Below are positions 2 to 32,286 of a DNA stretch of 64,000 bases, piece after piece. The notes beneath the pieces are model-generated. The model saw only the letters and a list, made by a program, of their open reading frames with translations, was not told where the DNA came from and searched no databases. This stretch comes from a virus, in IMG/VR virus record IMGVR_UViG_3300028412_000009. One strand, written 5' to 3'. Positions within the stretch are counted from its first letter, which is position 1; every line of letters starts with the position of its first letter. Made by a program: the position numbers and the translations under genes.

Positions 2-448
2 GTTCATAAATTCGGTGGAATGTATGTAAACTGCGACATCGAACCAATTAGGCCTCTCCCCGAACTCCCTAAGAAGGCTTGGGCTTCATACGAGAATGAC
101 ATCAATGATGTGGTCAATGCTGTTATTGGAGCTCCCGCTCCCCGGAATGTCTTTTGGGGCCGTCTCCTGTCGAAGCTTCCAGCCCGCTATTTCTTGAACC
201 CCACCGATGAGATGGTTCATACCACAGGTCCTGGGCTTTTGACGGACATGGCCCGACGCTTACCAGAAAGGATTCACGTCTTCCCCAAAGAGACTTTCAA
301 TCCTGTGCACTGGTCTAAGATCTCGCCAGGAGGAGATGCTAAAAGCTTCAGAGATTCGCTCCCTCCGGAAACTATAGGGGTGCATCACTGGGGACACAAA
401 AAAGATGGAAGGACCAATTACATTGAATCCGCAACCCAGCCGAAGTAG
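2..448 (+). CDS. Glycosyltransferase, GT32 (Och1/Gly_transf_sug)-like C-terminal fragment; the gene probably starts upstream of the window
   Basis: The frame is open from the window start. FGGMYVNCDIEPIRPL resembles the GT32 GG-x-Y-x-D-x-D-(I/V)-x-x-x-(K/R)-P-L motif. A second glycosyltransferase follows immediately. Confidence 0.4.
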   Translation, partial: VHKFGGMYVNCDIEPIRPLPELPKKAWASYENDINDVVNAVIGAPAPRNVFWGRLLSKLPARYFLNPTDEMVHTTGPGLLTDMARRLPERIHVFPKETFNPVHWSKISPGGDAKSFRDSLPPETIGVHHWGHKKDGRTNYIESATQPK

Positions 449-1169
449 AGCTGTAGCCTTCACCGCCTATGACAGGCCCGGGTATCTTCGGGAATCTCTG
501 GAGTCCTGGCGGAAAGTTCGAGGGATGAATCGGTGGTACTTCTATCTCACTGTTGACCCTTCTGGGGAAACTCAGGAAGTAGTTGATCTCTTCACGCAGT
601 TTGCCCGAGACATGAGACTTCCTGATTGTGTGGTGAAAGTTAATCCTAGAAGGTATGGGGTTCTTCATCACCCCTGGGCCTCTTTTGATCATCTCTTTAG
701 TAACTTAGGAGTAGACCAGGTTCTTAGGGCGGAAGATGATCTTCTCGTTTCTGATGACATTCTAGAGATGTTTGAGTGGATTGACAACACCTACTCTGAA
801 GACACGAGAGTCGCCTCTGGGCACTCCTATTCTGGGGCACTGGAGGGGGACCCCAGAATTATTTCCAAATCTACTCGTTTCGAGTCCCTTAATTGGTGCA
901 CTTGGAGAGATAGATGGAATGACTTTATGCGGGACACATGGGATCATGATTACTCGACTTTCAATGGGGTCCCAGGAAGAGAGTCTGGGTGGGATTGGAA
1001 TTTGAACACCAGAATTTATCCCAAGTTTGGTCTTCAGGCTGTCCGACCTCAGCTCAGTAGAACTCAGAACATTGGTCTTCAGGGAACCCACTCCACGCCT
1101 CAGAACTTTTCACAGAGCCCTTCTTTCAGGGAAGAGTATGGGGTAGTTTCTTACGCAGAAGGACGATAG
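405..1169 (+). CDS. Glycosyltransferase family 2-like (GT-A fold)
   Basis: N-terminal AFTAYDRPGYLRESLESW resembles the GT2 IIPTYNRPELLxxCLESL block. An acidic DD-x-x-x-SDD stretch (EDDLLVSDD) could be the DXD motif. Confidence 0.4.
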   Translation: MEGPITLNPQPSRSRAVAFTAYDRPGYLRESLESWRKVRGMNRWYFYLTVDPSGETQEVVDLFTQFARDMRLPDCVVKVNPRRYGVLHHPWASFDHLFSNLGVDQVLRAEDDLLVSDDILEMFEWIDNTYSEDTRVASGHSYSGALEGDPRIISKSTRFESLNWCTWRDRWNDFMRDTWDHDYSTFNGVPGRESGWDWNLNTRIYPKFGLQAVRPQLSRTQNIGLQGTHSTPQNFSQSPSFREEYGVVSYAEGR

Positions 1170-1171
1170 TA
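1161..1171 (+). promoter_or_regulatory. Conserved intergenic 11-mer GGACGATAGTA
   Basis: Overlaps the stop codon of ORF 405-1169, 6 nt before the ATG at 1177. Confidence 0.3.
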
Positions 1172-1176
1172 GCACT

Positions 1177-1629
1177 ATGTCAGATAGCGCAGATCGAAGA
1201 GACCTTCAGGTTGAGGATACCCTTGACCTGGCTTTTGACCTGCCACAGGAGTTTGAGGATGACCCTTACCTGTCCTCCCTGTATCGGGAAATCATTGCTC
1301 GGTTGAGGGTTGAGGCAAACGGCCTTCCTATGAACACTGTTCAGACTCTTCTTCTAGAGCGCATTGCTTTCTTCTACATTAATCTAAAGAGGTCAGAGAG
1401 GTCTGAAGCTCTCAGCCCAACCAGACACAAGGACTTAGTCTCGTTCTGGCTTAATATGACCTCAGAGTTCAACAAGCAGTTAGCCGCAGGACATGAGCAG
1501 TTAAGAGACGCTCTTCTGTTGTCTATCTCTAAGATGGTAATGAGCAAGATTGATGAGATCGAGGACCAGGAAACCCGCCAGCAGTTGAGAATCCTTCTCT
1601 CTGAGGGATTCGCAGAGATGGGGCTCTGA
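1177..1629 (+). CDS. Hypothetical protein; possible small terminase subunit by position upstream of TerL
   Basis: Start follows a spacer after the conserved 11-mer. 150 aa, lies directly upstream of the large terminase. No diagnostic motif. Confidence 0.3.
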   Translation: MSDSADRRDLQVEDTLDLAFDLPQEFEDDPYLSSLYREIIARLRVEANGLPMNTVQTLLLERIAFFYINLKRSERSEALSPTRHKDLVSFWLNMTSEFNKQLAAGHEQLRDALLLSISKMVMSKIDEIEDQETRQQLRILLSEGFAEMGL

Positions 1630-2333
1630 TGATGGACTCTGATGACAGAGATCTGATTGTTCTTTTAGCCAGTAGCTCTGCCAGCCTTGCCGTGGCCCCG
1701 GGCAACAAGGATAATTGGGTGGAGCGTGCTGGTCCTGGAGGTCAGGGCGGCGAGCTCCCCCGCTATGTCCGAAAGATCGCCAGAGGGATAATGAAGTCAG
1801 GGAAGAGCAAGTCTCAGGCTATTGCTATTGCTATTAGCCGTATCAAGAGATGGGCCCGGGGCGGCGAGGATGTCAAGGCGGACACACGAATCAAGGCCGC
1901 AAAGGCGTTGGCAGAGTGGACCGCTCTAAAGGCCAAGAACAAGAGAAATCAGATCGTTAAAGCCTCAAACTCCGAGGGAGAGTATTTCATGCTCTCATAC
2001 TCTGGTGAGTTTAATACTGACCTTGTTCGCAGAGCCTGGAATAAGTTCCAGTCTGATCTCAGCAAGAAAACCTTTTCTGGGGACACCCCTGAAGAGGACA
2101 TTCCTGTTTTCTGGATTGTCGAGCTATGGACCTCTCATATCATTGTTGAAAAGTCTACTTATGGCGAATATGATCAGTCTGAGCACTTCAAGATCCCTTA
2201 TACAGTAGAGGGTTCTCAGGTCAACTTCGGGGTTCCAGAACCAGTGAAGTCTGCCTATGTCCCCGTTGAGTCAGACTTGACCTCGAATGAGAAGATCTTA
2301 CTTTCTGATTTGCTGACTTCTTCTAAGGAGTAG
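1629..2333 (+). CDS. Hypothetical protein with a Lys/Arg-rich central region
   Basis: Translationally coupled to the upstream ORF. Basic K/R-rich segment. No recognisable domain. Confidence 0.3.
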   Translation: MMDSDDRDLIVLLASSSASLAVAPGNKDNWVERAGPGGQGGELPRYVRKIARGIMKSGKSKSQAIAIAISRIKRWARGGEDVKADTRIKAAKALAEWTALKAKNKRNQIVKASNSEGEYFMLSYSGEFNTDLVRRAWNKFQSDLSKKTFSGDTPEEDIPVFWIVELWTSHIIVEKSTYGEYDQSEHFKIPYTVEGSQVNFGVPEPVKSAYVPVESDLTSNEKILLSDLLTSSKE

Positions 2334-2336
2334 CAT

Positions 2337-4196
2337 ATGAGAAGACTTTCGGATGAATTTCTCTTAGCTGGAGATGATCCTAACAGAAGCACTCTTAGTC
2401 AGGTCTTTGACGAGGAACCTGTCTCCCTAGACGTGTTTGTGCAGGATCAAAAGTTTCTTAATAACCCTCCCCTGTCGGACATCCAGTTTGAGCTTGTGCG
2501 TCATATTGAGCGTGTCTATCTTCCAGAGCTCTACCCTGCCATGGCTGACGAATTCGGAGGCTACTGGGAGGACACCTTAGACACCCCGATGCGGAACCTT
2601 ATCACCGCACAGTGGGGCAAGGGTGGCGGAAAGGACATGACTGTTGGAGTGGCCTCTCTGAGAGTTGCCTACTTGCTGATGTGTCTGAAGTCTCCACAAC
2701 AGCACTTTGGCATGACTTCCTCCAGCTCGATCCACCTCCTCAACATTGCCGCTAACGCTCCGCAGGCCCACCGTGCTTTCTTCGTGCCTCTAACCCGAGC
2801 CGTGAAGAGAGGATGGTTTAAGGACCGAGCTGAGCCCAAGATGAACACCATCATCTATGACAAGAACATCGAGGCTATTTCGGGACACTCTGACGCTGAG
2901 GGCCAAGAGGGTTTGAACCTGATCCTCGGGGTTGCAGATGAGATCGATGCTTTCAAGGCTCGCAATGAGCTCGTAGGCGGCGGAAGGAAGGCTCGCGAGG
3001 CCTCCACTACCGCTGAGGGTATTTTGGAGATGCTTAAGACATCTGCGTCTACTCGGTTCCCTCAGACCTATAAGCGCGTGGCCATTTCCTACCCGCGCTA
3101 CCTGGGATCCACGATCCAAAAGCTGACGGAAGAGGCCAAGGTCAATGTTGAGCGTTCTCCATCAACCTCGATCTATTTTGCCTCTGGTCCCTATGCCACC
3201 TGGGAAGTAAACCCTCTTCGTAAAGGCAAGCAAGAGTTTGCATCTGACTATGAAGAGGACCCAGTGGAAGCGGCGGCTAAGTATGAATGCAAGCCTGCCC
3301 GGGCCACTAACCCCTACTACCGAAACTTCTACATCTTCAAGCAGGCTGTAGACAGGGATACGCAACCCCTTTCTGTAGGATATAAGCGACGCATGGTGGA
3401 ATCCGAGGTTACCAAAGAGAAGACTTTGGGGTGGGAGCCGGTTTTCACTCTCTCTCCCGGCTTCAAGCCGATCCAGGGGGCTCGCTATGCTATGCACGGG
3501 GATCTCGCTATTTCAGGTGACCGTGCCGGAGTTGCGATGTCTCACATCTCTCACTATGAAGAGCGAGAAGAGGTTGTCGCTTCTGGAAAGGACGGAGAGC
3601 AAGTCACTCAGAAGACTTCAGTTCCTGTGATCCGCAATGACTTCACAGTGACGTTCGAGGCAGACTCCGGAGCTGAGCCTGCCCGAGAGATTCAAGTTCG
3701 GTGGGCCCGAGAGCTGGCTTTTGAGCTAGTTAAGCGTGGGTTCCCTATTGTGTCTTATACGTTTGACTCATTTCAATCAGCAGACAACATTCAGATCCTT
3801 CAACAGCACGGGATCCCTTCTGACAAGCTCAGTCCTGACCGAGACCAGAGCATTTGGCGGACCCTGAAAGATATTGCCTCCGAAGGAAGACTTCGAATGT
3901 CTTTTAATCAGTTGTTGCTCAACGAGCTTGAGGCCCTGTCTGTTTTCGGTAAGAAGGTAGACCACCCTCCTAACGGCAGTAAAGACGCCGCCGATGCTTT
4001 TGCTTGCTCCGTGGTGGGGGCCTTGGTCGCGGGGGGCGAAGAGGACCCTGACGGGACGATGGTAAACATGGGAGACACCATTTTTGAGGTCGGAGATGAG
4101 ATACACTTAGCTGATGGGCTGGGTTCTCTTAGCCCGATAGGAATGGAGTCTATACTCTCTCTACCTTCTGGATTTGAGGAATACAGTAATGGCTAA
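2337..4196 (+). CDS. terL: Terminase large subunit (TerL)
   Basis: 619 aa. P-loop-like GKGGGKD, Walker-B-like LILGVADEID, and C-terminal nuclease-type acidic residues (HGDLAISGDRAG; GSKDAADAF). Position immediately upstream of the portal. Confidence 0.7.
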   Translation: MRRLSDEFLLAGDDPNRSTLSQVFDEEPVSLDVFVQDQKFLNNPPLSDIQFELVRHIERVYLPELYPAMADEFGGYWEDTLDTPMRNLITAQWGKGGGKDMTVGVASLRVAYLLMCLKSPQQHFGMTSSSSIHLLNIAANAPQAHRAFFVPLTRAVKRGWFKDRAEPKMNTIIYDKNIEAISGHSDAEGQEGLNLILGVADEIDAFKARNELVGGGRKAREASTTAEGILEMLKTSASTRFPQTYKRVAISYPRYLGSTIQKLTEEAKVNVERSPSTSIYFASGPYATWEVNPLRKGKQEFASDYEEDPVEAAAKYECKPARATNPYYRNFYIFKQAVDRDTQPLSVGYKRRMVESEVTKEKTLGWEPVFTLSPGFKPIQGARYAMHGDLAISGDRAGVAMSHISHYEEREEVVASGKDGEQVTQKTSVPVIRNDFTVTFEADSGAEPAREIQVRWARELAFELVKRGFPIVSYTFDSFQSADNIQILQQHGIPSDKLSPDRDQSIWRTLKDIASEGRLRMSFNQLLLNELEALSVFGKKVDHPPNGSKDAADAFACSVVGALVAGGEEDPDGTMVNMGDTIFEVGDEIHLADGLGSLSPIGMESILSLPSGFEEYSNG

Positions 4197-5667: not shown

Positions 5668-5680
5668 GGAGAAACATCTC

Positions 5681-6073
5681 ATGGCTCTCAATTCTTCTAG
5701 TGAGCGTAAGGTAGCCACCAAGGCGGGGGCTGATTACTTCGGCAAGCCGGTGGGGTCTGTGATCACAGCCAATGATCGAATGACGGCCAAAAACCGCAGG
5801 GCTCCCGTGACCATGGACCGCCTGCGTTCTCTGCGACGTCAGTTTGTTCAGGCGAAGCGTGTCGGAAGTAAGCCCATCATGGCGGCGGTCAACAAGCAGT
5901 TCCAGGAAGAGATCCGCATCTTTTCAGATACGGGAGGCAGGGACATCAAGGGTATTCTGGACGAGATGGACGCCAATCTCACGGATGGAATGAAAGATTC
6001 TACTGAATTGAATGATACTGATGTTGAAGACGGGAACAAGGAAGAATCCCCCGAACAAGCGCCCGAAGACTAG
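5681..6073 (+). CDS. Hypothetical protein sharing an N-terminal motif with the giant downstream protein
   Basis: Good RBS (taaggagaaac). Motif FGKPVGSVITANDRMTAKNRRAP parallels FGQPVGTLITADMEAAAERR at the N-terminus of ORF 6133-11445. Confidence 0.45.
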   Translation: MALNSSSERKVATKAGADYFGKPVGSVITANDRMTAKNRRAPVTMDRLRSLRRQFVQAKRVGSKPIMAAVNKQFQEEIRIFSDTGGRDIKGILDEMDANLTDGMKDSTELNDTDVEDGNKEESPEQAPED

Positions 6074-6087
6074 GCAATTTCCCTCAG

Positions 6088-6132: not shown

Positions 6133-9100
6133 GTGTCAGCACCTCTTGATGATCCCCAAGAGCTCGATGAGCTCGTTGCCTTAGCCGCCCGCAGGCTGAG
6201 GAACTTGGGCGGTAGCAAGAGTCGGGGAGGCCGCTATGTTCGAACTCCCGAGGGGGCCCGACACTTCGGCCAGCCTGTAGGTACTCTCATCACCGCTGAC
6301 ATGGAAGCGGCGGCTGAGAGGCGTTCCGGTACCAAGGCCCCAAAGAATGCTCTGTCTTACGCGAAGCCCAAGCCTCAGACATCGGCACCCGGCTCTCGTC
6401 CTTTTGCAATGGGGGATCCCAAGAAGGATGGGCCTCATGTAGTCCAGCCTGTAAACAATCAGCCCGGCAACTCTTCGAAGTCTCAGAGCGTGGCTTCCAA
6501 GAAGGCGTCCACTCCTAGAGATGTTAATGCAGACAAGCCGAAGTTCGATGTTCCCACCAGGCTTAAGGAAACGCCATCTCTCCAGGGAGACAAGAAGTTT
6601 CGAGTAGGTAAGAAGGCTTACGATGCTCCAGAGGGTTCTCGCCTTATCAAGACCAAGGATGGTAAACTGGCTTATGTCATTGACCCCTCTGGTCGTCCCC
6701 ACCTCTTCAATGAGCGTGGTGAGGTAGAGCTCTCCCTGGAAAATGAGAACCGTATTGCTCGACTGTTCACTGAAGACTTCTCTGAGGACGAAAAGTACTC
6801 TGTTGAGGAGTTTGAGGAAGGAGGCACTAACCTAGGTCAGGTTGGTGACTCTGTCCCCGGCCGGGATTGGCTAAAGAATACTGACCCCGGTTCTGTCATT
6901 TCTTTTGGCGAGGGGGAAAAGGTCCGCTGGAAGAAGGGCTCTGATGGAAACTGGCGTCGTGAGGAGGATGGAGACTCTGGCCCGCATTTTGAGTCTGAGG
7001 TTATGCCCTTTGACGAGAATACGAAGATCGAAGAAGTTCCCGAAGTCAGGTCCGACCAGGCCTTCGACCCAGCCATTGATGAAGTTGATGATACTGACCT
7101 TGATGAGCTGAACGCGGAAATAGAAGAGTCCATGGAGCGACTATCTCCTGAGGACCAAGATCTTGTTCGAGCCATGACATTCCAGATGCGCAGTATGGTC
7201 GCGGGTCGTTCCCTGGGATCTCCCGAGGGTGGGGACCGATCTGAAAGCGAAGACACGCGACAGCCCTCTGTCGGGGGGCCAGTAGATCGAGAGACTCTCA
7301 GTTCATCTAAGCCGGGCACTACAGTGTCTGAGGAAGACCCTGTCGAGAACCGAAAGATTCGTTGGACGAAGAACGAGGATGGCAAGTGGTACACCCGAGG
7401 GTCTGACGAGGGGGTTGAGGATGACTACTTCGATGAGTCCTCCTCTGCAACCTTTACGTCGGTCCCCGATTCCTCCCCCGAGGGTCAGTCAGATTCTCGG
7501 CCTGCTTCCGAGAGCTCCTCTTCTGCTGGGAAAGACTCCACAGAATTCGTGCCTGGTGATTCAGAAGCCGGTACTACGGTCACTGTCCCGGAGGGGGATT
7601 CTGGCCGCGTCTTCGTGAAGGTAGGGGATAACCAGTGGGTCTCCCCCTCCCCCGATGGGTCCAATGTTGACAGCTTCACTGATGACGACATGAAGGATAG
7701 GGACGTAACTGTCCTGCCTTCCTCTGACAGGCGCGCCGCCTCCGGGAGGCGCATGGCAGAACGCCGTAGTCGTGAGGCTTCCCCTCTTCCCTCAGCTGAG
7801 TCGGTTGAAGCTAACCAGCGCGCCCGCCGCGAGGCTTCCGAAGAAGCTAGCCGTCGAGGTCGCGAGCTTATGAAGGCTGACGAGAGGCGCAGGGCTGATG
7901 AGGCTAGAAAGAACCCAGCTGAGGTCTCTGATTTGGATGGGGCTGGGGCCGGAGAATCCGTGACTGTGGTTGACCCTGACGGTTCTGTCAAGAGTTGGAA
8001 AAAGTCCGAGCAGACGGGCAATTGGCACGACTGGGACCGAGACAAGATCAGTCCTTTCTCCGAGGCGTTGAACGGCACGTCAGACAGAGAGAAGAGGGGC
8101 CTTTCTTCAGAAGAGCTTCTTGAGGAAAGTGAGGCTGTCTCCAAGCCCGCTTCCCGTCGAGGTCGGGGTACTTCGGAGGGAGAGAGTGCTCGCCCAACTC
8201 CCCAGCCTGACCCCAACAACCCCAATGATCTTTCCAACGCCGAAGAGGGCGATGTTGCCTATGCTCAGGATGAAGATGGCAACGACCGAGAGTTCTTGAA
8301 GTCTCCTAATGGATCTTGGATGTCTGCTCCTGAGGGTAAGGACACCTTTGAAGAGTGGTCTGATGATGAGTTGAGAGAGCTCGGTGGGGAGCTCGATCCT
8401 ACTCGCACTTCTGTAGACTTCCCCAACGCTTACGGATCTCACACCAATCAGGTCCAGCCTAATGAGGAGGCCGCTCCTACTAGCCCTGAAGGTGCTGAGT
8501 CTTCTCCCCGCCCTCGGAGGAGGAGAGGGCGTAGAAAGTCCGTCCCTGGATTTGATGAAATAGATACGGGGGATTCAGGGGCTAATGACGAGCTCTTCGA
8601 CCCTGACGCTGAGCCTCAGGATCTTCCTGAAGGAGAAGATGTCATCCCCAAGGCCAATGAGTTTGAAGAGGTTGACCAGCCGGGAGATGAGGCTCGTAAG
8701 CGCCCTGGAGGCAAGATGCCCCAGCGCAAGCCTTCGCCAGATCTTCCTGATACCGACACTCTCGGGAACCCTGATGGCTTCTCTCCCACTCCAGTGGGTG
8801 CCGAAAATCAGGAGTGGTCACTTCAGCCTAAGGACACCATTACCCGTGAATGGTTCCGTAACGCCCCTGCCGGTTCTCAGATCACTGCCCCCGATCCGAC
8901 CTCTGCACGCGGAGAGTCCATCTGGGAGAAGGATCTCAACGGAGAGTGGAACCGAGTTGTCGGTCGTGCCGGTCACTTCAGTCCGCGCTCAACTGGTGGG
9001 GCCGGTAACGAGGGCCCGGGTCACAACTTCAACATTTTCGAGCCCGATGGGTCCCTTTCTGAGGAGTTCGGGGATTACAAGGTTGGTAAGTCGGGAGACG

Positions 9101-17822: not shown

Positions 17823-18385
17823 GTAAGCTTTCCTTGGCCGCACGCAATATGCTGGTACAGACTCCCGAGGTTCAGAGCCTCGTCTCTAGCGGGTTGATCG
17901 CAAGTGACTCTGAATGGGACAATGGGTGGGTTTTTGACAATTACATCATTCCCAGAGCTCTTGATGACAAGTCATACACCACAGCGGTCGTTGTTTCAGA
18001 GCGTGTCTGGCAGGATCCTAATCCACACAATACGATGAAGTTTCCCCTGCTGGAGGTCGATATTTGGGCGGCTCCTACGAGAGATAGTTCTGGTTCCATC
18101 ATAGAGAGGGACGCCGACGACCTCATTGAGGAGGTAATGGCTGGGATAATGCCTTATTTCCACGCTATTGATCGAGGCGTCCCCGGCAGATCTGGAGACC
18201 CTCATATCTCCTACATGGGCTCACCCGGAGAGGTGAGATATTGGGGAACAGAAGATGAGATTCTCAATCATACAGGGGTTCCTATTTTCGACTCCACCCA
18301 TATCAGCACAGAAGACTTCAGGGATGTTGAAGGCGGTAATGGGGTAAGGTACCGATCTTACCGCTTTGGCATCGAAACAGCTTAA
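17819..18385 (+). CDS. Hypothetical protein; candidate tail terminator
   Basis: 188 aa. 4-bp overlap with the upstream gene. Confidence 0.3.
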   Translation: MSKLSLAARNMLVQTPEVQSLVSSGLIASDSEWDNGWVFDNYIIPRALDDKSYTTAVVVSERVWQDPNPHNTMKFPLLEVDIWAAPTRDSSGSIIERDADDLIEEVMAGIMPYFHAIDRGVPGRSGDPHISYMGSPGEVRYWGTEDEILNHTGVPIFDSTHISTEDFRDVEGGNGVRYRSYRFGIETA

Positions 18386-19538
18386 TCCAATAACTCACAG
18401 AGGACTTGATCCCATGAAAGTATTGCTAACAATCCCACTCTCTCGTTTTTCAGGTTATGGGAATGACGGAATTGGACTTACCCGAGCCTTAGTACGTGCG
18501 GGGGCAGATGTATATATCCGTCCGAAGGTGGTGCAGGCTCCCCTTCCTGCTGACATTGCCCAGCTTCTGACAAAGGGGCTTCGAGCCCCTTTCGATCTCA
18601 CCATCACCCACTTGGACCCAGCGGCCTTACAGCTACCCCCCGACACCCGCGCCTCCAGTAAGATCTGCATCGCCTGGAGCATGTGGGAGTACACAGACTT
18701 TAGCTTCATGAGAGGTCGATCTAAACTCCGCGAGAATCTGCGAGACTACGATGCTGTAGTTGGGTATGACGAGGTTACTAACGAGTGTTTCCGCCCTTAT
18801 TATCGGGGTCCTATCCTGAAGCAACAAGGTGGATATGAGCCGGAAGGTTGGGAGTATTTAGAGCGGAATTGGAATTCGGAAGACTTCTATTTCTCCATGG
18901 TTGGGGCTCCCCTTTCTATCAGGAAGAATCCATTGTCTGCTGTGAAGGCATTTGGCGAACTCAAGAACGAGAACTCCGAGTTTGACAAACATGCTAGGTT
19001 GATGTTGAAAACTACCCCTGACGACAAAGGACTTAGCCCCAAGATGGAGGATGTGTATCCGGGTCTGAGGGTGTTCGCGGATACTTGGACCCCTGACATT
19101 CTCAAAGAGTTCTATCGGAACACCCACGTACTTCTGGCCCCCTCCCGGGGGGAAGGGAAGCACATGCCTTCTCTGGAGATCCAAAGCACTGGAGCTCCGG
19201 TCATCGCTACCAACTGGGGTGGCATGACTGAATGGCTTAGCCCTGAGTATTCCTACCCAGTGGACTACCGGCTGTCCCTTCAAGACCCTATCAACAAGTC
19301 TATGACTAACGCTGAAGTCTCGGTCCCTCATCTCAAAGAGCTTATGCTTCATGCGTTCCAGAATCGAGATGAAGTGAGGCACAAGGGGTTCGTAGCTTCG
19401 CAGATTATCCCTCAACTTTGCTCCTGGGAGAATGTTGTAGGTAGGTTGATGGGCAAATTGAGGGATCTCGAAGGTGGAGAGGAACTGTGGGCCCGTTACC
19501 AGATAGCTCTTTCGGAGGCTGAAGATGGAGACGACTGA
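18366..19538 (+). CDS. Glycosyltransferase family 4 (GT-B fold)
   Basis: C-terminal LAPSRGEGKHMPSLEIQSTGAPVIATNWGGMTEW matches the GT4 E-x7-E nucleotide-sugar motif (PSxxEGFG..EAMAxGxPVIAT). Embedded in the structural module. Confidence 0.7.
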   Translation: MASKQLNPITHRGLDPMKVLLTIPLSRFSGYGNDGIGLTRALVRAGADVYIRPKVVQAPLPADIAQLLTKGLRAPFDLTITHLDPAALQLPPDTRASSKICIAWSMWEYTDFSFMRGRSKLRENLRDYDAVVGYDEVTNECFRPYYRGPILKQQGGYEPEGWEYLERNWNSEDFYFSMVGAPLSIRKNPLSAVKAFGELKNENSEFDKHARLMLKTTPDDKGLSPKMEDVYPGLRVFADTWTPDILKEFYRNTHVLLAPSRGEGKHMPSLEIQSTGAPVIATNWGGMTEWLSPEYSYPVDYRLSLQDPINKSMTNAEVSVPHLKELMLHAFQNRDEVRHKGFVASQIIPQLCSWENVVGRLMGKLRDLEGGEELWARYQIALSEAEDGDD

Positions 19539-19770
19539 AGTCCGCTGTCCTGTAGGCCCCCGAAGATTGTTCACTAAACTCCTTAGCGATGGAAAAAAAC
19601 CTACCATCACCGCATCCAACCTAATTGAGTTTTCTTGCCCAGAGTGTAAGAAGCTTTTTAGGACGCAACACAATATCTATTGCTCTAGAGTTTTACACCG
19701 CTATGATTTAGCCGGAGAATTGGTTGAGTCAGTTCTTGAGGATGCTCAAGTTCGACCTCGTGGCCGATAG
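19525..19770 (+). CDS. Small zinc-ribbon protein
   Basis: CPVGP...CPECKK: two Cys pairs. 81 aa. Confidence 0.35.
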   Translation: METTEVRCPVGPRRLFTKLLSDGKKPTITASNLIEFSCPECKKLFRTQHNIYCSRVLHRYDLAGELVESVLEDAQVRPRGR

Positions 19771-19825: not shown

Positions 19826-20404
19826 GTGGCTACCAAGAACGTTGAGGGGTTTTCTATCTCTCACGCCGCGATTCTCGACGGCCAGACTGGACTTGAAGAA
19901 GAGTTCGGTGATCTGTATGGTATCCGCTCCGGTTCTCTAGAGCTTGATCAGGATAGCTACGACAACACTGGTGACGACGGAATCCTCAGTACCTGGTACT
20001 GGGCTAACAAAGTGAACGTCACCATTCAGTCTGGGTACATCCCGTTCCAGACCTGGTCTCTGATTTCCGGCTCGAAGGTTACCTCTTCCGGGTCGGGAGC
20101 TAGCGAGATTCTGGAAGCCCCCCTTTGGGAGCAGAGGCAGATGAACACTCAGCCTCGACCTATGCTTGTGCGAGTCCCTTCTAAGGACTCTGCGGGTGCG
20201 GTTCGCCTTCTGGACTTTATCCTGTTCAAGGTTCAGTTCCAGCCTTTCAGCTTCGACGGACCTTCTTACAAGGAAGGTCTTCTGGTTAACTACAATGGAT
20301 CCGCCTTGTTCTCGGACACTGACCACGAAGGCAACCAAGTAGTTGACTCTCAGACTGGGGATCCAACGACTGCCATTGGAAAGCTTATTTCCAAGGGAGT
20401 TTAA
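19826..20404 (+). CDS. Major tail protein (tail tube)
   Basis: 192 aa, GTG start with a strong RBS. Lies immediately upstream of the two chaperone genes and the tape measure gene. Gly/Ser/Thr-rich. Confidence 0.5.
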   Translation: MATKNVEGFSISHAAILDGQTGLEEEFGDLYGIRSGSLELDQDSYDNTGDDGILSTWYWANKVNVTIQSGYIPFQTWSLISGSKVTSSGSGASEILEAPLWEQRQMNTQPRPMLVRVPSKDSAGAVRLLDFILFKVQFQPFSFDGPSYKEGLLVNYNGSALFSDTDHEGNQVVDSQTGDPTTAIGKLISKGV

Positions 20405-26031: not shown

Positions 26032-26826
26032 GTGGCTTTATTGAATGAGCTTACTAGATCAAAGATCATGCTTAAACAGTTTGGCGGGGAAGACTACACT
26101 CCCACTGCCTCGTGGAAACTTGCCGCTGTCACTAGCGCCCCTGACGAGGAGGACGGCTCTGGTCTTGAAGAGCCTCTAGCTTCATCTTACGGTCGAGTCA
26201 CTGTCCCTAACGACCTCACTACCTTTGAGCTGTCGCTAGAAGGAACTGAAGTGGTTAACTCTGAACAGTGGGTTTTCGGGCCAGCTACAGATGAATCCTG
26301 GGGTCCCATTTTGGGGATCGCCTTGTTTGATGCTTCCGATGAGTACATGGGGTACGCTCCTTTCTCTTCCCCTAGAATTGTCAACAAGAACGACCGGCTC
26401 TTAATAAAGCCAAAGTCATTTATTGTGGCTATGGAAACAACTCCCCTTTCCGTCTATGTAGAGGAAGCCCCTGTGCCTACGATCAAAACATCCCCTGACA
26501 ACACTCGTTTCATTCTCTCCGTGGACGATGCAGGAGCAACGGTATGGACTGAAACTACCGCCTTTGGGCCTCCTACTTCTCCCACCTCCCTTACAGACAC
26601 CGCTGGTGTTCTTTCTTGGACCGCATCTTCCGGCGACGGTGGCACTCCGATCAACTCATATACCGTATGGCACTACGACTCGGATAGTCTTCTTCAGAAT
26701 TATGAGGTGCTTTCCTCCTCTGAGCTCTCGTACGAGATCCCCCTAGATGAAGTAGGGACCTTCTTTGTCACCGCCGAGAACATTGTAGGGGCCAGTGATC
26801 CTAGTAATGAAGTGATCGTTTCCTAA
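26032..26826 (+). CDS. Tail protein with an FN3-like domain
   Basis: Segment TSPTSLTDTAGVLSWTASSGDGGTPINSYTVWHYD is typical of a fibronectin type III fold. Confidence 0.4.
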   Translation: MALLNELTRSKIMLKQFGGEDYTPTASWKLAAVTSAPDEEDGSGLEEPLASSYGRVTVPNDLTTFELSLEGTEVVNSEQWVFGPATDESWGPILGIALFDASDEYMGYAPFSSPRIVNKNDRLLIKPKSFIVAMETTPLSVYVEEAPVPTIKTSPDNTRFILSVDDAGATVWTETTAFGPPTSPTSLTDTAGVLSWTASSGDGGTPINSYTVWHYDSDSLLQNYEVLSSSELSYEIPLDEVGTFFVTAENIVGASDPSNEVIVS

Positions 26827-29558
26827 TGTCCTCTCTTCACTATGGCCTATCCACGGCAGAAACTCCGCCCAACCTGAAAGCCGCGTCGGCCTCAGTTCTT
26901 GGTCTCTCTTTTGGCGTTTCTGCTGAGGTTGAGTCAGCTCCGGCTTATGTTGTCAGTGCAGAGGACACCAATGGGCTTGAGTTCCGGGTCTATGACCCAA
27001 CGGGATCTACTTTCTTAGGTTCTGTTGCTAAGAGGAGTGTTGCTAAGTGGTCTGATGAGTTGAATGGCAAGGGTTCCGGTACCCTTGAAATTAACCTCAC
27101 TGACCCCGCTGTTCAGGCTAACCCTAAGATCATTGCTGATGACAATATCATCAAGGCCCGTTTTCTTGGGGAAGACAGGTTTGCTTGGAGGGTTAAGAAC
27201 GGAAGCACTACCCTCATCAGTGAAAGAGAGACAGAGGACGATAAGTCCGAGTTGAGTGGGCCCGGAATCCTTTCCGTTCTATCAGAGGGAATTCTTCGCC
27301 CTGAGTACCCAATTTCTGGGGATCCTACACGAGAATCTAGAGAACGTTACTTTGGCTACATGTCGAAGCATGACTCGGTTGAACTTACTAGTACTGTGGG
27401 CTGGATCGAAGAGGTCAATGAATTAACTTCTCCTTTGATTACGCAACTCACTGACTGGGAAATTATTCAAGGCTCTTCCGTGGTGACAAAGTCTCTGGGG
27501 CCCGCTTCGGTGGGGAGCTACTATGAATCTATGGAGTTCACATATAGCTCTTCCGGATCTACCGAAGTTGAATGTCGAGAGGCTTCCTCGGATGACATTT
27601 CTGTGAACCCGGGGGAGGTTCTTTCGGCGGGTCTTCTCTACTCTACCCTGCTAGGTGGGTCAGCTCGGGTAGGCTTGGAGTTTGATTCGGGTGGGTCTGT
27701 GTACGGGGATTGGTCGGTTACAGAAGCCGAATCCTCTTCTAATCTGAGTTTAGAGGGAGCTTTAGCTCCCGAAGGGAGTTCGTCTGCTCGCCTGGTCATT
27801 CAGCTCTCTTCAGATGAGCACGCTGATGGTAATGTTGTTTCCTTAAGTTCTCCAATTGTCAGTAGAACTGAGTCTGCTCTTTCCTTTTTCTCAGGCAATT
27901 CTGACACTACGGCCTCCTATTCACGAGAGTGGACTGGGTCGGAGAATGACTCCACCTCCATTCGATATGAGCGAATGCTGGTCACCTCTGATCGTCAAGC
28001 CAGTTGGTATGACGAAGATGACTGGACCCGAGATTTTGAGGCAATAAGGAAGCAAGACGCCAAAGGAGGGACAGGAGAGAATAGCCCTCCAGATTGGCCC
28101 GACCCCACAGCTTATTTGGTGTGGCCTTCAAAACCAACACGGCCTTCGAACCCAGGCGCTGTTTATTGGAGGAATGAGTTCTATGCCACTGAGCGGATGA
28201 GCGTGTTCGTTCAGGCGGCGGCGGACAACCGAATGCGTGTCTGGCTAGATGGAGCGGAAATTATCACGGCTGGGTTCAACGGCGACGCCACCGAAATCAC
28301 TTCTTCTTGGGATGGGGTGATTTCTGAGGGTACTCATCTTCTCGCCGCAGAGACAACCAACTTTCAAAGCCCCACCCCGGGAGATAACTATGGGTGGTTC
28401 CTTTGCACTGTTATGAAGAAGATCTTGAATAAGCCTGTTGGTGTTGTAACGCATACCGACTCCTCTTGGTATGCCTACTACAAGGGAGACGCTAACGTTC
28501 CTTACAGGGACGAAGTCACTACAGGAACGAAGACAGTCACAACCGAAAAGAAGGTCTCGGTTAAGTACAAGGTACGAAGTGGGGACACTCTAAGTGCTAT
28601 TGGTCGTAAATACGGGGTCCCTTGGCGGAAGATCTATAAAGCCAACAAGAAAAAGATTGATGATCGGGCGGCTCGGAGTGGTCTCCCTAATAATGGCCCT
28701 GGGTGGTGGATCTTCCCCGGACAGATCCTAGTTATCCCCGGAAAGTATAAGACCACAAGCTCAACGGCCTCGGTGCCCTCCACCAGCACTAAGCGTGTCT
28801 GGAGCGCGGGGGAGGCCTTGAGCACCAAGCGTCCCGGTTGGTACCCTCATCAGATTCTGGCCAAGGTTTTCTCTGAGGCGAAGAGTCGGGGAGTGCGCTC
28901 TTTAGCCTCTACCGAGTTGGGGTTCGCTTTCGGCTTTGACTCTGAAGGAGAGTCCTGGCCGACAGGACACGAAGAGGTCGTGGAGCGGTCCTTCCGCATC
29001 GCCTCCAGTGTGTATGAGGTCGCCCAGGAGCTTGTAGAGGGCGGGATTGACATTAGGATGGGCCCCGACCTTGTCTTGAGGGCCTACAACCAGCTCGGAT
29101 CTTATCGAGGTATTGGGGTAGCCAGAGAAGATAGGTTCCACCTTCTAGATGTTGGGAACAGCACTCTCAAGTATAAGATCGGGCGCAGTACTGACCTCTA
29201 CAACTCTCTTTTGATCGACACGGAACTTGGGTGGAGAAACTTTTCTACCCCCAACGGGGATGAGATCGGACTGTCTGAGGGAGGAGCCTCTCTGGGGGGG
29301 ATGAACGCTGATAGGATTGCTCACGCAATTGGAGCCGAGCTTGAAGAGCTCTCTCGAAGGACAAAGACAGTTTCCACTACATTCAGGATTGTTCCCGGAC
29401 GCCTCCCTTATGTCGATTTCGACCTAGGGGATATTGTTGTCGGTCATGATGAACAAGGCAATGTATTCGATGCTAGAATTACAGCAATAGGCATTGAAGA
29501 GAAGAGTGAATATGACATTCGGTGTGAGGTTGAGGCCTCAGGAGAAGGTTTATCATGA
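26826..29558 (+). CDS. Tail-associated (Tal/baseplate hub-like) protein containing a LysM peptidoglycan-binding domain
   Basis: 910 aa. YKVRSGDTLSAIGRKYGVPWRKIYKAN ... GQILVIP is a canonical LysM. Position after the Dit-like gene. Confidence 0.55.
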   Translation: MSSLHYGLSTAETPPNLKAASASVLGLSFGVSAEVESAPAYVVSAEDTNGLEFRVYDPTGSTFLGSVAKRSVAKWSDELNGKGSGTLEINLTDPAVQANPKIIADDNIIKARFLGEDRFAWRVKNGSTTLISERETEDDKSELSGPGILSVLSEGILRPEYPISGDPTRESRERYFGYMSKHDSVELTSTVGWIEEVNELTSPLITQLTDWEIIQGSSVVTKSLGPASVGSYYESMEFTYSSSGSTEVECREASSDDISVNPGEVLSAGLLYSTLLGGSARVGLEFDSGGSVYGDWSVTEAESSSNLSLEGALAPEGSSSARLVIQLSSDEHADGNVVSLSSPIVSRTESALSFFSGNSDTTASYSREWTGSENDSTSIRYERMLVTSDRQASWYDEDDWTRDFEAIRKQDAKGGTGENSPPDWPDPTAYLVWPSKPTRPSNPGAVYWRNEFYATERMSVFVQAAADNRMRVWLDGAEIITAGFNGDATEITSSWDGVISEGTHLLAAETTNFQSPTPGDNYGWFLCTVMKKILNKPVGVVTHTDSSWYAYYKGDANVPYRDEVTTGTKTVTTEKKVSVKYKVRSGDTLSAIGRKYGVPWRKIYKANKKKIDDRAARSGLPNNGPGWWIFPGQILVIPGKYKTTSSTASVPSTSTKRVWSAGEALSTKRPGWYPHQILAKVFSEAKSRGVRSLASTELGFAFGFDSEGESWPTGHEEVVERSFRIASSVYEVAQELVEGGIDIRMGPDLVLRAYNQLGSYRGIGVAREDRFHLLDVGNSTLKYKIGRSTDLYNSLLIDTELGWRNFSTPNGDEIGLSEGGASLGGMNADRIAHAIGAELEELSRRTKTVSTTFRIVPGRLPYVDFDLGDIVVGHDEQGNVFDARITAIGIEEKSEYDIRCEVEASGEGLS

Positions 29559-31114
29559 CAGCTAGAAGACCCCAACAGCCCACAGGAAACAGGTTAATCC
29601 GGGCCCAGCAATCTACTTTCGACGGGACCCTGGGAGGGCGGCTTAGATCCGCTCGTCCTGTGGACCGCCAGGCCCCCGCTGAGCGCCTAAGTACCTCTCA
29701 GAGTGCGGTCGGTGGAGGTCAGATCTATCACTCCGTTAATGTAGGTCGAGTAGGAGAGAACGACTTTCTCATTGACCGTAATGGAATGCCTTGGTGGCCA
29801 ACATTATCCGGATGGACTAGACTCTTCTCCCACTGGGGGAACGCCTATCCTTTAGCAGATAACCCTCCCCCTTGGTTTTCGGGTAACGATCCTATGGTTA
29901 TGTTTGGCCTAGACGTGGCGACAGTGACAGATCCGGATACGGGAGGAATGTCTACCAACTCAACCATGATTGGGTCAGGAGTCCGCATGAGCTCCTATGG
30001 GTCCATAGCGATGGGCCTTGTAGTTGAGGCGATGTGCAACGAAGGGGTGGTGGCCTTAGGAAACACTATTGGGTTGGGAGTAGAGAATCTACAGTCCTTC
30101 GACTCTAAAGGACGTCCCACCGCTACTCCGGGGAGTCGTGCAAATATTGTTGCTATCGGATCAGATCTAAAAGCTCTTAGATCGGTTAATCAAGCCATTC
30201 TGATTGGAGTAGGACACCGTTACGATGCTCTCGATGACTCAGACGCGAGCGATGGTGTCTTTAGTATAGGAATGGCCAACTCTGTGCTAGGAGTTGCGAA
30301 AAATATCTTACAGCTAGGCACGAACAATCAGTTTGATAGTTCTAGTGGTGTCGGGCCTTCTGACCTTACCCAAATTGGAACTTCTAATGAGATTACTCTA
30401 ACTGACAGCGCTATACCTAGAGATGTTCTTATGTTTGGTACGGGAAATACCTTAACCACGCAGGAAGATGACTGGAGAGAGAGCAGTCAAAGTTTTCTGA
30501 TTGGAGTGGCGAACTCTACTGACTCCGGTAACTCTCTTGCTATTGGACTAGACAACAATATATCAAATGCTCATGGGGTTGTTGCTATAGGAACTAATTC
30601 TGACGTCACTGGGGCCCCTCAGTCTGTGGCTCTGGGGTTCAGCGTACTCATTGAAGGAACTTCAGAGTTCTCTGACTATTCTTCAGCGCAGGCTAGCTCA
30701 GCCAACGGGGGAAATGCTGTTGGGTTGGGAACAGCTATTGCTCTCAATAAGTACCAGACCATTGGGATCGGAACGGCCTTAGATCTTTCCGGGATTAAGT
30801 CTCACGTTCTAGGGAATGGTGTGGGGATCACAGGAGAAAGGTCTTGGGTGATTGGCTCCGACGTCTACCCGGCCCAAGACTATCTTCCGGACGGATGGGA
30901 TCCTGTGGACGAGCTCCCTGCCAGCCCCCTGGCCGAGGACGAGTGGGGAGTCTTAGTAGGTCGAAGGGTCGAGATCAAAAGGTCTCCCCATACCATCCCT
31001 GATGTTTCTCCAGTGGGAGACGAGTCTACAGGCATCATTCTTCATTCTCCTGACGGCTCATCCTTTGTTATCACTGTAGATAATGCCGGAACTTTGGCTA
31101 CCACAGCTTTGTAG
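29555..31114 (+). CDS. Tail fibre/receptor-binding protein with Hep_Hag/YadA-head-like repeats
   Basis: Repeated xxIG(V/L/M)xNxxxGxxSxAIG motifs (LIGVGHRYDA, FSIGMANSVLG, FLIGVANSTDSGNSLAIGLDNN, VVAIGTNSDVTG). Confidence 0.5.
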   Translation: MTARRPQQPTGNRLIRAQQSTFDGTLGGRLRSARPVDRQAPAERLSTSQSAVGGGQIYHSVNVGRVGENDFLIDRNGMPWWPTLSGWTRLFSHWGNAYPLADNPPPWFSGNDPMVMFGLDVATVTDPDTGGMSTNSTMIGSGVRMSSYGSIAMGLVVEAMCNEGVVALGNTIGLGVENLQSFDSKGRPTATPGSRANIVAIGSDLKALRSVNQAILIGVGHRYDALDDSDASDGVFSIGMANSVLGVAKNILQLGTNNQFDSSSGVGPSDLTQIGTSNEITLTDSAIPRDVLMFGTGNTLTTQEDDWRESSQSFLIGVANSTDSGNSLAIGLDNNISNAHGVVAIGTNSDVTGAPQSVALGFSVLIEGTSEFSDYSSAQASSANGGNAVGLGTAIALNKYQTIGIGTALDLSGIKSHVLGNGVGITGERSWVIGSDVYPAQDYLPDGWDPVDELPASPLAEDEWGVLVGRRVEIKRSPHTIPDVSPVGDESTGIILHSPDGSSFVITVDNAGTLATTAL

Positions 31115-31122
31115 GAAATCTT

Positions 31123-32286
31123 ATGAAAAATTACCCTTTATACGCTGTTATACCCTGTCACAATGATTGTGAGCTTTCTAATTGGGCAGTAAGAGCTTTA
31201 CTTTTCTCTGAGGCAAAGTTTGAGAAAATTATTGTTGTTGCAGACAGATGTTTTAGCCATGTCAATTCTTGGAAGTATGATGAAGTCTCTGTTATTTTCC
31301 TGGAGGATAATTCCGAAGGAAAGTCCGGAGCCCTGAACAAAGCTTTAACTCTCCTCTCTCTCTCCAGTCCTTCTGGCTTTTACATTCTATTTTGCGATGC
31401 TGATACCGTCATAGATCTTAGTCAGGTTCGGTTTCTACAGTCGGAGATCTCTGCTTCAGGAGTCAAAGCAGTGATGGCTCAAGTCTCGATTCTGAGTTCT
31501 GACAGTCTTCTTGTTGGATTCCAGAGGCTAGAACTACAAAACCAAATTTTGGACCATAAAAGAAATAGCTATCGGTCTGACATAATTACAGGCCAGGCTT
31601 CTATTGTGGACATGACAGAGGGCAGTTACTTTTTTGACAGTGGCTCTCTGGTAGAAGATCAAAGGCTCACCTATCAGCTGAGGGCTGAGTTTGGGGACGC
31701 TTCTTGCTTGGTCTCTCGCCACACGGGAGCAGTTACGGATCCTATGACCTCTTGGAAAGGGTGGTGGGCCCAGCGCCGAAAATGGAACACGGGCTCTCTC
31801 AATGAGGTGCTCGCCCAGCCTTTCTCACTGACCAAGCGTTACTGGCGGCGTCTTTTTAGTACCCTCTTCGACTTGAGTTTGAGGACCTCGGTCCTTCTTG
31901 GGGTCATTCTCTTCCCAAGCTTTTGGTGGGTGGGTCTTCTCCTTGTGGCCGTTGGCATGGTAGTATCAACCCCCTGGGGCTCAGTAAGAGTTCGAAGTGA
32001 CCACAGGCCCGTACTTTTGTGGGAGCTCTACCAATGGGCTTTGTGGGCTAACCTGGGAGCCAGCTTGGTAAAACGAGGACAGCAGGGGTTATGGGAGAAG
32101 CAACGAGAAGCCGAGTCTAGGACGGGACAAAGTAGAGATCTCCTGGCCTCGATTGCGGGCTTGGGTCTGCTCTCCTTTGTTTCCTTGCTCCTGGCCCCTT
32201 TAACTATCCCTGTACTAGTTTTTAGACAGATCAATCGATTAAGGAGAAAACAAGATGAATCTGGACATAAATTTAGAAACAGCTAA
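31123..32286 (+). CDS. Membrane-anchored family 2 glycosyltransferase (processive-type)
   Basis: DAD motif in FCDADTVID. Q-R-R-K-W resembles the QxxRW motif. Three to four C-terminal hydrophobic helices. Confidence 0.55.
   Translation: MKNYPLYAVIPCHNDCELSNWAVRALLFSEAKFEKIIVVADRCFSHVNSWKYDEVSVIFLEDNSEGKSGALNKALTLLSLSSPSGFYILFCDADTVIDLSQVRFLQSEISASGVKAVMAQVSILSSDSLLVGFQRLELQNQILDHKRNSYRSDIITGQASIVDMTEGSYFFDSGSLVEDQRLTYQLRAEFGDASCLVSRHTGAVTDPMTSWKGWWAQRRKWNTGSLNEVLAQPFSLTKRYWRRLFSTLFDLSLRTSVLLGVILFPSFWWVGLLLVAVGMVVSTPWGSVRVRSDHRPVLLWELYQWALWANLGASLVKRGQQGLWEKQREAESRTGQSRDLLASIAGLGLLSFVSLLLAPLTIPVLVFRQINRLRRKQDESGHKFRNS

Follow-up and report, generated by a model that had tools for sequence, protein, structure and literature searches.

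The stretch of viral DNA considered here, IMG/VR record IMGVR_UViG_3300028412_000009, was analysed over its full 64,000 nucleotides (hereafter the window) and carries four glycosyltransferases (GTs) in and around its virion structural genes. It is proposed, with a probability of roughly 0.5, that all four are catalytically plausible enzymes serving two roles: three soluble GTs would modify virion proteins, and a membrane-embedded GT2 would act on the envelope of the infected cell. The observations behind the proposal concern enzyme family, motif, fold and gene order, together with the conservation and co-occurrence of these genes.

Four glycosyltransferases of four families

The original prediction that the window encodes four GTs of different families is borne out. 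All four open reading frames (ORFs) are on the plus strand, and each is identified as a GT by independent evidence. They are not chance ORFs, because they are either conserved genes with hundreds of homologs or confidently folded. A hydrophobic-segment check found no membrane segment in any of the three soluble GTs.

2..448, plus strand: GT32-like retaining GT-A enzyme (Och1/A4GALT/toxin-type), C-terminal 148 amino acids; 64% identity to residues 84–231 of gp6 of phage Magritte
405..1169, plus strand: GT13-like inverting GT-A enzyme with the GnT-I/POMGnT1 fold; start at ATG 405 or TTG 423
18414..19538, plus strand: GT4 enzyme (GT-B, retaining type), 374 amino acids; the ORF opens at TTG 18366, and ATG 18414 is the likely start
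31123..32286, plus strand: membrane-embedded synthase-type GT2 enzyme, 387 amino acids, with an N-terminal cytoplasmic GT-A domain

Among isolates, only Microbacterium phage Magritte (OR553905; 133 kb) is close; its proteins are collinear with those of the window at 30–75% identity. Three of the four GTs are already annotated 'glycosyltransferase' in Magritte (gp6, gp8 and gp31); these are orthologs of the soluble enzymes at 64%, 48% and 50% identity, respectively, and occupy the same positions. Magritte differs in that an HNH gene separates gp6 from gp8, that the GC content is 64% compared with 52% in the window, and that the membrane GT2 is absent, with no such gene following the tail fibre genes.

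On alignment, catalytic motifs are found in three of the enzymes, namely EDD in the GT13-like enzyme, EX7E in the GT4 and DAD, ED and QRRKW in the GT2. In the GT32-like enzyme, by contrast, N-C-D replaces DXD. The coordinates given for these motifs were checked by translation.

29..37, plus strand: N-C-D at the DXD position of the GT32-like enzyme; YVNCD aligned to YLDVD (YLDVDM) of TcdA
732..740, plus strand: E-D-D metal/nucleotide-sugar motif of the GT13-like enzyme (E110-D111-D112), invariant in 30 homologs
19152..19178, plus strand: E-x7-E signature of the GT4 (EGKHMPSLE); E263 and E271 do not vary among 28 sequences with identities down to 30%
31396..31404, 31654..31659 and 31771..31785, plus strand: DAD (residues 92–94), ED (178–179) and QRRKW (217–221) of the GT2

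Coupling of the GT4 enzyme to the tail tube

The GT4 gene was predicted to lie between the head–tail genes and the major tail protein gene, and it does so. The predicted start at 18366 is to be corrected to 18414, since homologs begin at Met17 of the longer ORF and an AGGA site precedes that ATG. The protein matches Pfam Glyco_trans_1_4 (PF13692) at 32.8 bits against a cut-off of 27 and PF00534 at 25.2 bits against 26.4, most homologs matching both, and phrog_2170 is matched at 5e-25. The closest solved structure to the GT4 profile by sequence is the Chlorovirus GT4 B736L (PDB 3oy2; E = 1.1e-6), which is likewise virus-encoded; the match is weak and covers only the C-terminal, nucleotide-sugar-binding half, and the host and virion are unrelated.

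17819..18385, plus strand: tail terminator-like protein directly upstream of the GT4; homolog of Magritte gp30 and Kitkat gp28, both annotated as tail terminators
19525..19770, plus strand: 81-amino-acid mini-protein with conserved Cys8, Cys38, Cys41 and His58 (alignment of six lineages), a zinc-ribbon-like pattern
19826..20404, plus strand: major tail (tube) protein (MTP); 75% identity to Magritte gp33 'major tail protein'; phrog_36442 at 8e-41; C-terminus ...ISKGV

The order tail terminator, GT4, CCCH (Cys-Cys-Cys-His) mini-protein of 70–80 residues, MTP and chaperone is shared by Magritte, two metagenomic relatives, Arthrobacter cluster AT phages and DanielleIgnace; the Magritte annotation calls a shorter ORF at the mini-protein locus. 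Among 50,697 phage records, the seven that encode an MTP homolog are exactly the seven that encode a GT4 homolog. MTP homologs, at identities down to 40%, were also located at 70 IMG/VR loci with enough upstream sequence, and a GT4 gene lies upstream on the same strand in 70/70, accompanied by the mini-protein in 69/70. An IMG/VR locus search with a single GT4 protein as query returned nothing. The coupling at all of these loci and in the same seven phage records is strong evidence that the GT4 is functionally linked to the tail tube module, and it singles out the tail tube protein as the likeliest acceptor or partner of the enzyme.

The arrangement extends to phages of a different build. Arthrobacter cluster AT phages (KellEzio and Kitkat, gp28/29) and DanielleIgnace (gp21) also place a GT4 between tail terminator and tail tube, with identities of 30% for the GT4 and 41–44% for the MTP. 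They differ from the window phage in a genome size of ~58–61 kb and in another head module, and no GT13-like homolog was found in them. In 2017, Klyczek et al. (PMC5513430) remarked on the unusual location of the cluster AT GT.

A GT13-like enzyme upstream of the terminase

The ORF at 405–1169 had been described as GT2-like, which is the wrong family. It is GT13-like, because GNT-I is its best Pfam match, its profile finds POMGnT1, its predicted fold is that of GnT-I and POMGnT1, and its EDD motif is invariant. GNT-I is in fact its sole Pfam match, at 25.1 bits against a cut-off of 25.4, and several homologs carry a precomputed PF03071 match. A profile of 30 homologs detects human POMGnT1 (E = 2.6e-9) over almost its full length, and rabbit GnT-I as well. 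The AlphaFold2 model (predicted local distance difference test score, pLDDT, 89.6) is matched best by Foldseek to GnT-I (1foa; TM-score 0.73, root-mean-square deviation 2.9) and POMGnT1 (5ggi; TM-score 0.74), while the BFVD viral fold library gave generic GT-A matches only, weaker than GnT-I. The EDD motif aligns with VEDDLEVAPDF of GnT-I and EEDL of POMGnT1.

Family GT13 is known mainly from eukaryotes. GnT-I and POMGnT1 (CAZy GT13) are eukaryotic β-1,2-N-acetylglucosamine (GlcNAc) transferases acting on mannose; they resemble the phage protein in fold, in the aligned EDD motif and in a profile match spanning the whole catalytic domain. The phage protein differs in its low identity to them (17–18%), its length of ~240 residues, its lack of a stem or membrane anchor, and a Pfam score just under the gathering threshold. 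A 48%-identical homolog (locus L023, 10001–10789) is a stand-alone chromosomal gene on a 426-kb actinobacterial contig of 74% GC, with no phage context; its neighbours are an Rdx-family gene and a methyltransferase gene, and mraZ is ~9 kb away.

The GT32-like enzyme and the pre-terminase cassette

As its 64% identity is to residues 84–231 of Magritte gp6, ORF 2–448 is taken to be the truncated C-terminal part of an enzyme of ~232 residues, the window edge removing the N-terminal ~85. The fragment itself matches Pfam Gb3_synth (PF04572) at 20.1 bits, below the cut-off of 22.3. Full-length gp6 matches Gly_transf_sug (PF04488) at 36.5 bits against a cut-off of 23, and PF04572 at 18.6 bits. By way of the PF04488 match of gp6, the predicted GT32-like family is reasonable, for what in the window amounts to the C-terminal 148 residues. 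N-C-D is invariant among the three clade members compared, none of which has DXD at this position. This conservation points to selection rather than decay, although the protein may have lost catalysis.

The GT32-like and GT13-like genes are adjacent and lie just upstream of the terminase gene. In relatives, they belong to a recurring cassette of clamp-loader-like ATPase, nucleotide-sugar enzyme, GT32-like enzyme, GT13-like enzyme, two small genes, terminase and portal. The nucleotide-sugar enzyme is encoded directly upstream of the GT pair, a region that falls beyond the left edge of the window; in Magritte it is gp5, annotated 'UDP-glucose dehydrogenase', which is a short-chain dehydrogenase/reductase (SDR) protein of the epimerase/dehydratase family. 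In one relative (L013, 8891–10004), the SDR and GT32-like genes are replaced by genes for a cytidylyltransferase-like protein (PF01467) and an unrelated 230-residue protein, which suggests that the glycosylation cassette is modular. A 'GT + UDP-glucose dehydrogenase + ATPase' cassette in phage RobsFeet, which resembles Magritte gp4–6, was considered and rejected as not homologous.

Homologs of the GT13-like and GT4 enzymes form 255 and 635 clusters, respectively. Many are on contigs of 110–137 kb and some contigs carry both (for example, a 133,495-bp ENA contig), on which basis the two are core genes of a large, mostly uncultured Magritte-like clade. With the GT32-like gene included, all three soluble GTs are considered core genes of the phage clade.

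A membrane GT2 following the tail fibre gene

Residues D92, D94, E178, D179, Q217 and W221 of the GT2 are invariant in 40 homologs and R218 is nearly so; the residue at 220 is Lys in the window enzyme and either Arg or Lys in relatives. The GT2 profile matches BcsA (1.4e-17), the alignment running through its transmembrane region, and also hyaluronan and chitin synthases. The AlphaFold2 model (pLDDT 86.9) has the Chlorella virus hyaluronan synthase (HAS) as its best fold match (TM-score 0.65). Hydrophobic helices are at residues ~244–288 (nucleotides 31852–31986) and 338–371 (32134–32235) and an amphipathic segment at 295–317, with none before residue 244. The N-terminal transmembrane helices that HAS and BcsA use in their channel are therefore lacking, and helices do not flank the GT domain on both sides. 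Of the predicted membrane-embedded, processive-type GT2 with DAD and QRRKW motifs, the motifs, the membrane embedding and the synthase-like character hold; processivity is uncertain and the helices are C-terminal only.

Compared with Chlorella virus HAS, BcsA, chitin synthases, PgaC and NodC, the phage enzyme shares the D, DxD, ED and Q(R)xxW signature and a GT-A domain that precedes interface and transmembrane helices; these proteins are its best fold or profile matches. It is much smaller, however (387 residues compared with ~500–570 for hyaluronan synthases and more for BcsA and chitin synthases), is 12–14% identical to them, has Lys for Arg in QxxRW, and lies far under the curated cut-offs. 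Against the PgaC_IcaA equivalog it scores 27.4 bits compared with a cut-off of 422, and it falls outside the PgaC_IcaA, NodC and CelA models; other equivalog models are matched by distant GT2 homologs alone, with E values no better than 1e-13 to 1e-15. Coating of the infected cell by a virus-encoded synthase is a known idea from the chloroviruses.

29555..31114, plus strand: tail fibre/minor tail protein, after the LysM tail protein; its C-terminus is 51% identical to the product of the gene upstream of the GT2 homolog in locus L002
32561..32896, plus strand: 111-amino-acid protein with one N-terminal transmembrane helix; phrog_4565; homologs are Magritte gp41 and the product of the gene after the GT2 in L002 and L008
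33121..33426, plus strand: holin-like protein with 2–3 transmembrane segments; PF23778 Phage_holin_2 at 1e-17

The GT2 gene begins 8 nucleotides after the tail fibre gene and is followed by an 86-residue ORF, the 111-residue single-pass membrane protein, a 76-residue ORF and the holin-like protein. Promoter- and terminator-like sites around it are no more frequent than in shuffled sequence, and its GC fraction of 0.473 is no clear outlier (mean 0.507, standard deviation 0.027). An IMG/VR locus search with the 111-residue membrane protein yielded seven loci, all distant, and one with a helicase alignment yielded a single, irrelevant locus. Locus L008, with a 36%-identical GT2, has the order tape measure, distal tail protein, Gp80-like protein, LysM tail protein, fibre, GT2, 103-residue ORF, 74-residue ORF and holin.

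The predicted position right after the tail fibre gene thus applies to the window and to L008, but not generally, as distant actinophage homologs are encoded among non-structural genes. Judged by protein-database homolog counts, the membrane GT2 appears to be a rare accessory gene: a database of 5.8 billion proteins returned only three homologs, compared with the 255 GT13-like and 635 GT4 homolog clusters there, and an exhaustive HMMER scan found two proteins below E = 1e-30, the rest having 28–30% identity. The GT2s of Brevibacterium phage Cantare (gp95) and of the Microbacterium phages TinyMiny (gp65), RobsFeet (gp86), Merry and Ajin are 23–27% identical over the GT domain and first membrane helices with the QR(x)(K/R)W motif in common and a W-x-K-Q stretch conserved. 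They differ in being ~350 residues long, in missing the last helix and in having non-structural neighbours, followed by a membrane mini-protein of ~50 residues that was not seen in the window. In Cantare, RobsFeet and TinyMiny, respectively, these mini-proteins (L020, 4574–4738; L021, 4569–4721; L022, 4568–4720) start with MYGTEAS.. or MYNDATS.. and have one transmembrane helix and a basic tail.

Two purposes had been suggested for this gene, seroconversion and superinfection exclusion. Seroconversion in the lysogenic sense is unlikely, because neither the window nor positions 1–100 kb of Magritte yielded an integrase or repressor and no GtrA- or GtrC-type partner is present beside the GT2. 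The Gtr cassettes of temperate phages combine a GtrA flippase, the bactoprenol GT GtrB and GtrC; the neighbours of the window GT2, in contrast, have no GtrA or GT-C match, and the enzyme itself bears the ED and QRRKW motifs of synthase-type GT2s. Superinfection exclusion or receptor masking may be its effect, and a change to the envelope of the infected cell would be the most plausible purpose of the enzyme.

Precedents for virion glycosylation and candidate acceptors

The suggestion that GTs embedded in actinophage structural operons are associated with virion glycosylation has a real precedent in Corndog (PMC4351075; PMC11600133). Corndog encodes an O-methyltransferase, two GTs and a putative GlcNAc-transferase between portal and protease, and its GTs are produced in infected cells but missing from virions (PMC4351075). 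The Corndog and Che8 GT systems are reported to glycosylate capsid and tail tube (PMC11600133; PMC12619734), with the glycan reportedly placed at the C-terminus. Glycosylation of mycobacteriophage virions is further summarised, in PMC11256854 and PMC11600133, as shielding particles from antibodies.

The window resembles the Che8 and Corndog systems (Freeman et al. 2023) in having several soluble GTs inside or adjoining the structural and packaging genes of an actinobacterial siphovirus. The Che8 genes gp108–110 lie at the right genome end, which would be beside the left-end terminase if the ends were joined. The enzymes differ, being GT2-type and GT25-like GT-A proteins with a methyltransferase there and GT32-like, GT13-like and GT4 proteins here, and no O-methyltransferase was seen beside the GTs in the window. 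The proteins of capsid and tail tube of Che8 and Corndog all end in Ser (TGS, DGS, VGS and GDS), and terminal Ser may be the glycan acceptor in these phages. Such an ending, at loci L016 (5051–5872 and 7613–8422) and L025 (6048–7280 and 9817–10632), might serve as an easily recognised signature of the system. In the window phage, the candidate acceptors are the tail tube protein and the following protein.

13407..14459, plus strand: major capsid protein; phrog_29 at 1e-30; 60% identity to Magritte gp21; C-terminus ...ADVTA; candidate glycan acceptor

Proposed roles of the four enzymes

From the observations above, we infer acceptors, donors, timing and biological benefit as follows. The three soluble GTs would be made together with the late proteins and would build a short O-linked glycan on virion proteins in the cytoplasm, before or during assembly. 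The GT4 would act on the tail tube protein, in an initiating or tail-specific step, and the two GT-A enzymes (GT32-like and GT13-like) would add or extend sugars; a set of two retaining enzymes and one inverting enzyme could yield a short heteroglycan. The GT2, a minimal enzyme of the BcsA/HAS/chitin-synthase type anchored by its C-terminal helices, would be co-transcribed with the tail fibre and lysis-associated membrane proteins. It would move sugar from a cytoplasmic uridine diphosphate (UDP)-sugar to a membrane-associated acceptor, either a growing polysaccharide or a lipid. The resulting change to the envelope might, for example, mask receptors against superinfection or against re-adsorption of progeny.

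Several points weigh against this assignment of roles. No virion glycan has been observed so far in the Magritte-like clade. The abstract of the 2023 study by Freeman et al. is said to report little evidence for virion glycosylation outside Mycobacterium, Gordonia and Streptomyces phages. The four window GTs show no homology to Che8 gp108–110 or Corndog gp35–38 (no BLASTP match at E<0.005 and no hidden Markov model (HMM) match at E<=10). The proteins of capsid and tail tube have no terminal Ser, ending in VTA and KGV in the window and in SVV and RGI in Magritte, and a search for a Ser/Thr-rich C-terminal tail on either protein found none in the window or in Magritte. Because the C-terminal Ser is missing, any acceptor site here must, on this comparison, differ from that of Che8 and Corndog. 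The GT32-like enzyme carries N-C-D in place of DXD, and such a change cripples clostridial toxin GTs. Since a chromosomal homolog exists without phage context, the GT13-like family is not intrinsically virion-modifying. For the GT2, processive secretion is uncertain, and a full translocation channel is doubtful because N-terminal helices are lacking; its distant phage homologs, moreover, are not beside tail genes.

A more far-reaching version of the proposal would make the GT4, CCCH mini-protein and tail tube an obligate tail-glycosylation module needed for tube assembly or function. With the GT32-like and GT13-like enzymes, this module would produce a eukaryote-like O-mannose/β-1,2-GlcNAc (POMGnT1-type) virion glycan across a widespread clade of ~130-kb actinophages, a few lineages of which would also coat the infected cell with polysaccharide through a single-sided HAS-like synthase. 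Taken as a whole, this version is considered improbable.

Alternative explanations

The soluble GTs might instead act on precursors of host envelope glycopolymers (teichoic/teichuronic-type polymers, lipoglycans or glycolipids), remodelling the cell surface or diverting nucleotide sugars and leaving the virion untouched. The Joint Genome Institute (JGI) annotation of GT4 homologs, 'glycosyltransferase involved in cell wall biosynthesis', would agree with such a role, as would the chromosomal actinobacterial homolog of the GT13-like enzyme and the membrane GT2 in the same genome. So would the replacement of the sugar-nucleotide enzyme in L013 by a cytidylyltransferase-like protein of PF01467, a family that includes the CDP-glycerol-forming enzymes of teichoic acid synthesis. 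This explanation is nevertheless rather unlikely: it leaves unexplained both the GT4 locked between tail terminator and tail tube in 70/70 loci, with its perfect co-occurrence, and the place of the other two GTs at the head of the packaging/structural operon in the relatives examined, and none of the three soluble enzymes has a membrane segment. Action on phage DNA, in which the GTs would glycosylate hydroxymethylated or hypermodified bases as protection against restriction, is decidedly improbable. The fixed place of the GT4 in the tail module would be unexpected for a DNA enzyme, and no ThyA-type hydroxymethylase was found in the window, which is about half of the genome. Genes in its favour are a deoxynucleoside monophosphate (dNMP) kinase, ThyX and a DNA methylase in the window and MazG and thymidylate synthase in Magritte. 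The Magritte thymidylate synthase, however, has no syntenic homolog and the window has ThyX elsewhere instead, which fits ordinary thymidylate (dTMP) synthesis. The DNA explanation can also draw on the GT32-like/GT13-like pair adjoining replication genes in relatives, and on phage GTs being classically DNA-modifying and of diverse GT folds, as summarised in PMC12619734.

Least probable of all, with only a slight chance, is that at least one soluble GT is no longer catalytic and instead assists assembly or binds carbohydrate; the GT4 might be a chaperone of the tail tube, for instance, or the GT32-like protein with N-C-D might be inactive. The GT4 does occupy the usual position of an assembly factor, and N-C-D is conserved in the three members. 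That same conservation speaks for selection and not decay, however, and the EX7E and EDD motifs are invariant across 28–30 diverse sequences, arguing for retained catalysis in the GT4 and GT13-like enzymes; the corresponding Corndog GTs are absent from virions (PMC4351075). For the membrane GT2, a different question is whether it is a non-processive lipid glycosyltransferase, which would make a glycolipid or polyprenyl-phosphate-sugar to modify the membrane or to act as donor in extracytoplasmic glycosylation. Ceramide and diacylglycerol glucosyltransferases bear the same D,D,D,QxxRW signature, the enzyme is short, with about three C-terminal helices and none at the N-terminus, its scores are far under the PgaC/IcaA and other synthase cut-offs, and aligned homologs also match HpnB, HpnI and CruG-type models of lipid and carotenoid GTs. 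The top folds are those of processive synthases, however (Chlorella virus HAS, chitin synthases and Xenopus HAS1), the profile alignment extends through the BcsA transmembrane region, and no partner flippase or periplasmic GT-C enzyme was seen beside the gene, so that a lipid GT is held to be a minor prospect.

The phage and other genes of the window

The long ORFs of the window are nearly all on the plus strand. The gene order begins with terminase, portal, a giant 1770-residue protein, protease/scaffold and major capsid protein, followed by head–tail proteins; it continues with tail terminator, MTP, chaperones, tape measure and distal tail protein, and then with the LysM-containing tail protein, fibre, holin-like protein, helicases and polymerase. 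The order is that of a siphovirus late region with replication genes after it. A megablast search with 20 kb among the 50,697 phage records found no nucleotide-level relative. The window is roughly the left half of a Magritte-like Actinomycetota siphovirus genome of ~130 kb, and the phage is probably lytic; no integrase or repressor was found in it or in the first 100 kb of Magritte.

The giant ORF (6133–11445, plus strand) lies soon after the portal gene, with one small ORF between, and is mostly charged and disordered-looking. It contains a Pro/Thr repeat of the (PTPEPTPTPESA) type at residues ~1500–1535 and a HEMGH zincin-like motif near residue 1683, and its relatives are 1991–2553 residues long (Magritte gp17, L011 and L013). 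A PDB sequence search with its C-terminus gave no match. It is a possible internal or ejected component of the virion, and the Pro/Thr repeat in it is, speculatively, an alternative candidate site of O-glycosylation. A 428-residue ORF (14863–16149, plus strand) between the major capsid protein and head–tail genes matches phrog_284 'exonuclease' at 8e-33; it has no Pfam or PDB match and no homolog in the first 100 kb of Magritte, and it looks like an insertion into the structural module. The 910-residue tail protein (26826–29558, plus strand) has a LysM domain and an endolysin/transglycosylase-like region (phrog_380, phrog_4602) and is likely a tail-associated cell-wall hydrolase. The window yielded no separate endolysin; that of Magritte is at 73.7 kb.

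Further along, 53038–54410 (plus strand) encodes a T4-type dNMP kinase (PF21448) beside ThyX (PF02511), with an N6/N4 DNA methylase farther on (57840–58865, plus strand). The Magritte counterpart is a different 'thymidylate synthase' (gp52) beside the DnaB gene, with no homolog at that position in the window. The product of 54938–56557 (plus strand) is 48% identical to Magritte gp118, annotated 'Ro-like RNA binding protein'; a scan of the whole window at Rfam gathering thresholds found no Y RNA and no other RNA family. A tRNA scan found no genes in the window, compared with about 30 in Magritte.

Significance

The GT annotation of three of these genes in Magritte and the odd position of the cluster AT GT (2017) are already known, and virion glycosylation is by now routinely inferred from GT genes in work on actinophages. 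To our knowledge, phage virion glycosylation has so far been shown in a few mycobacteriophages only. New here are the GT13-like assignment, the N-C-D variant, the clade-wide conservation and the exclusive coupling of GT4, mini-protein and tail tube, as are the absence of the mycobacteriophage acceptor signature and the minimal HAS-like synthase as a rare accessory gene.

Through the GT13-like enzyme, a mainly eukaryotic family would gain phage members, and the mini synthase would offer a compact model of membrane GT2 enzymes. A non-homologous set of enzymes (GT32-like, GT13-like and GT4) is a core feature of a large, mostly metagenomic clade, and in all cases examined one of them goes together with a particular tail tube family. 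As an isolate with a culturable host, Microbacterium foliorum NRRL B-24224, Magritte would offer a ready experimental system. If the soluble enzymes do glycosylate virions, virion glycosylation would be far more widespread in phages than the known cases, with more than one independent origin and with different acceptor sites.

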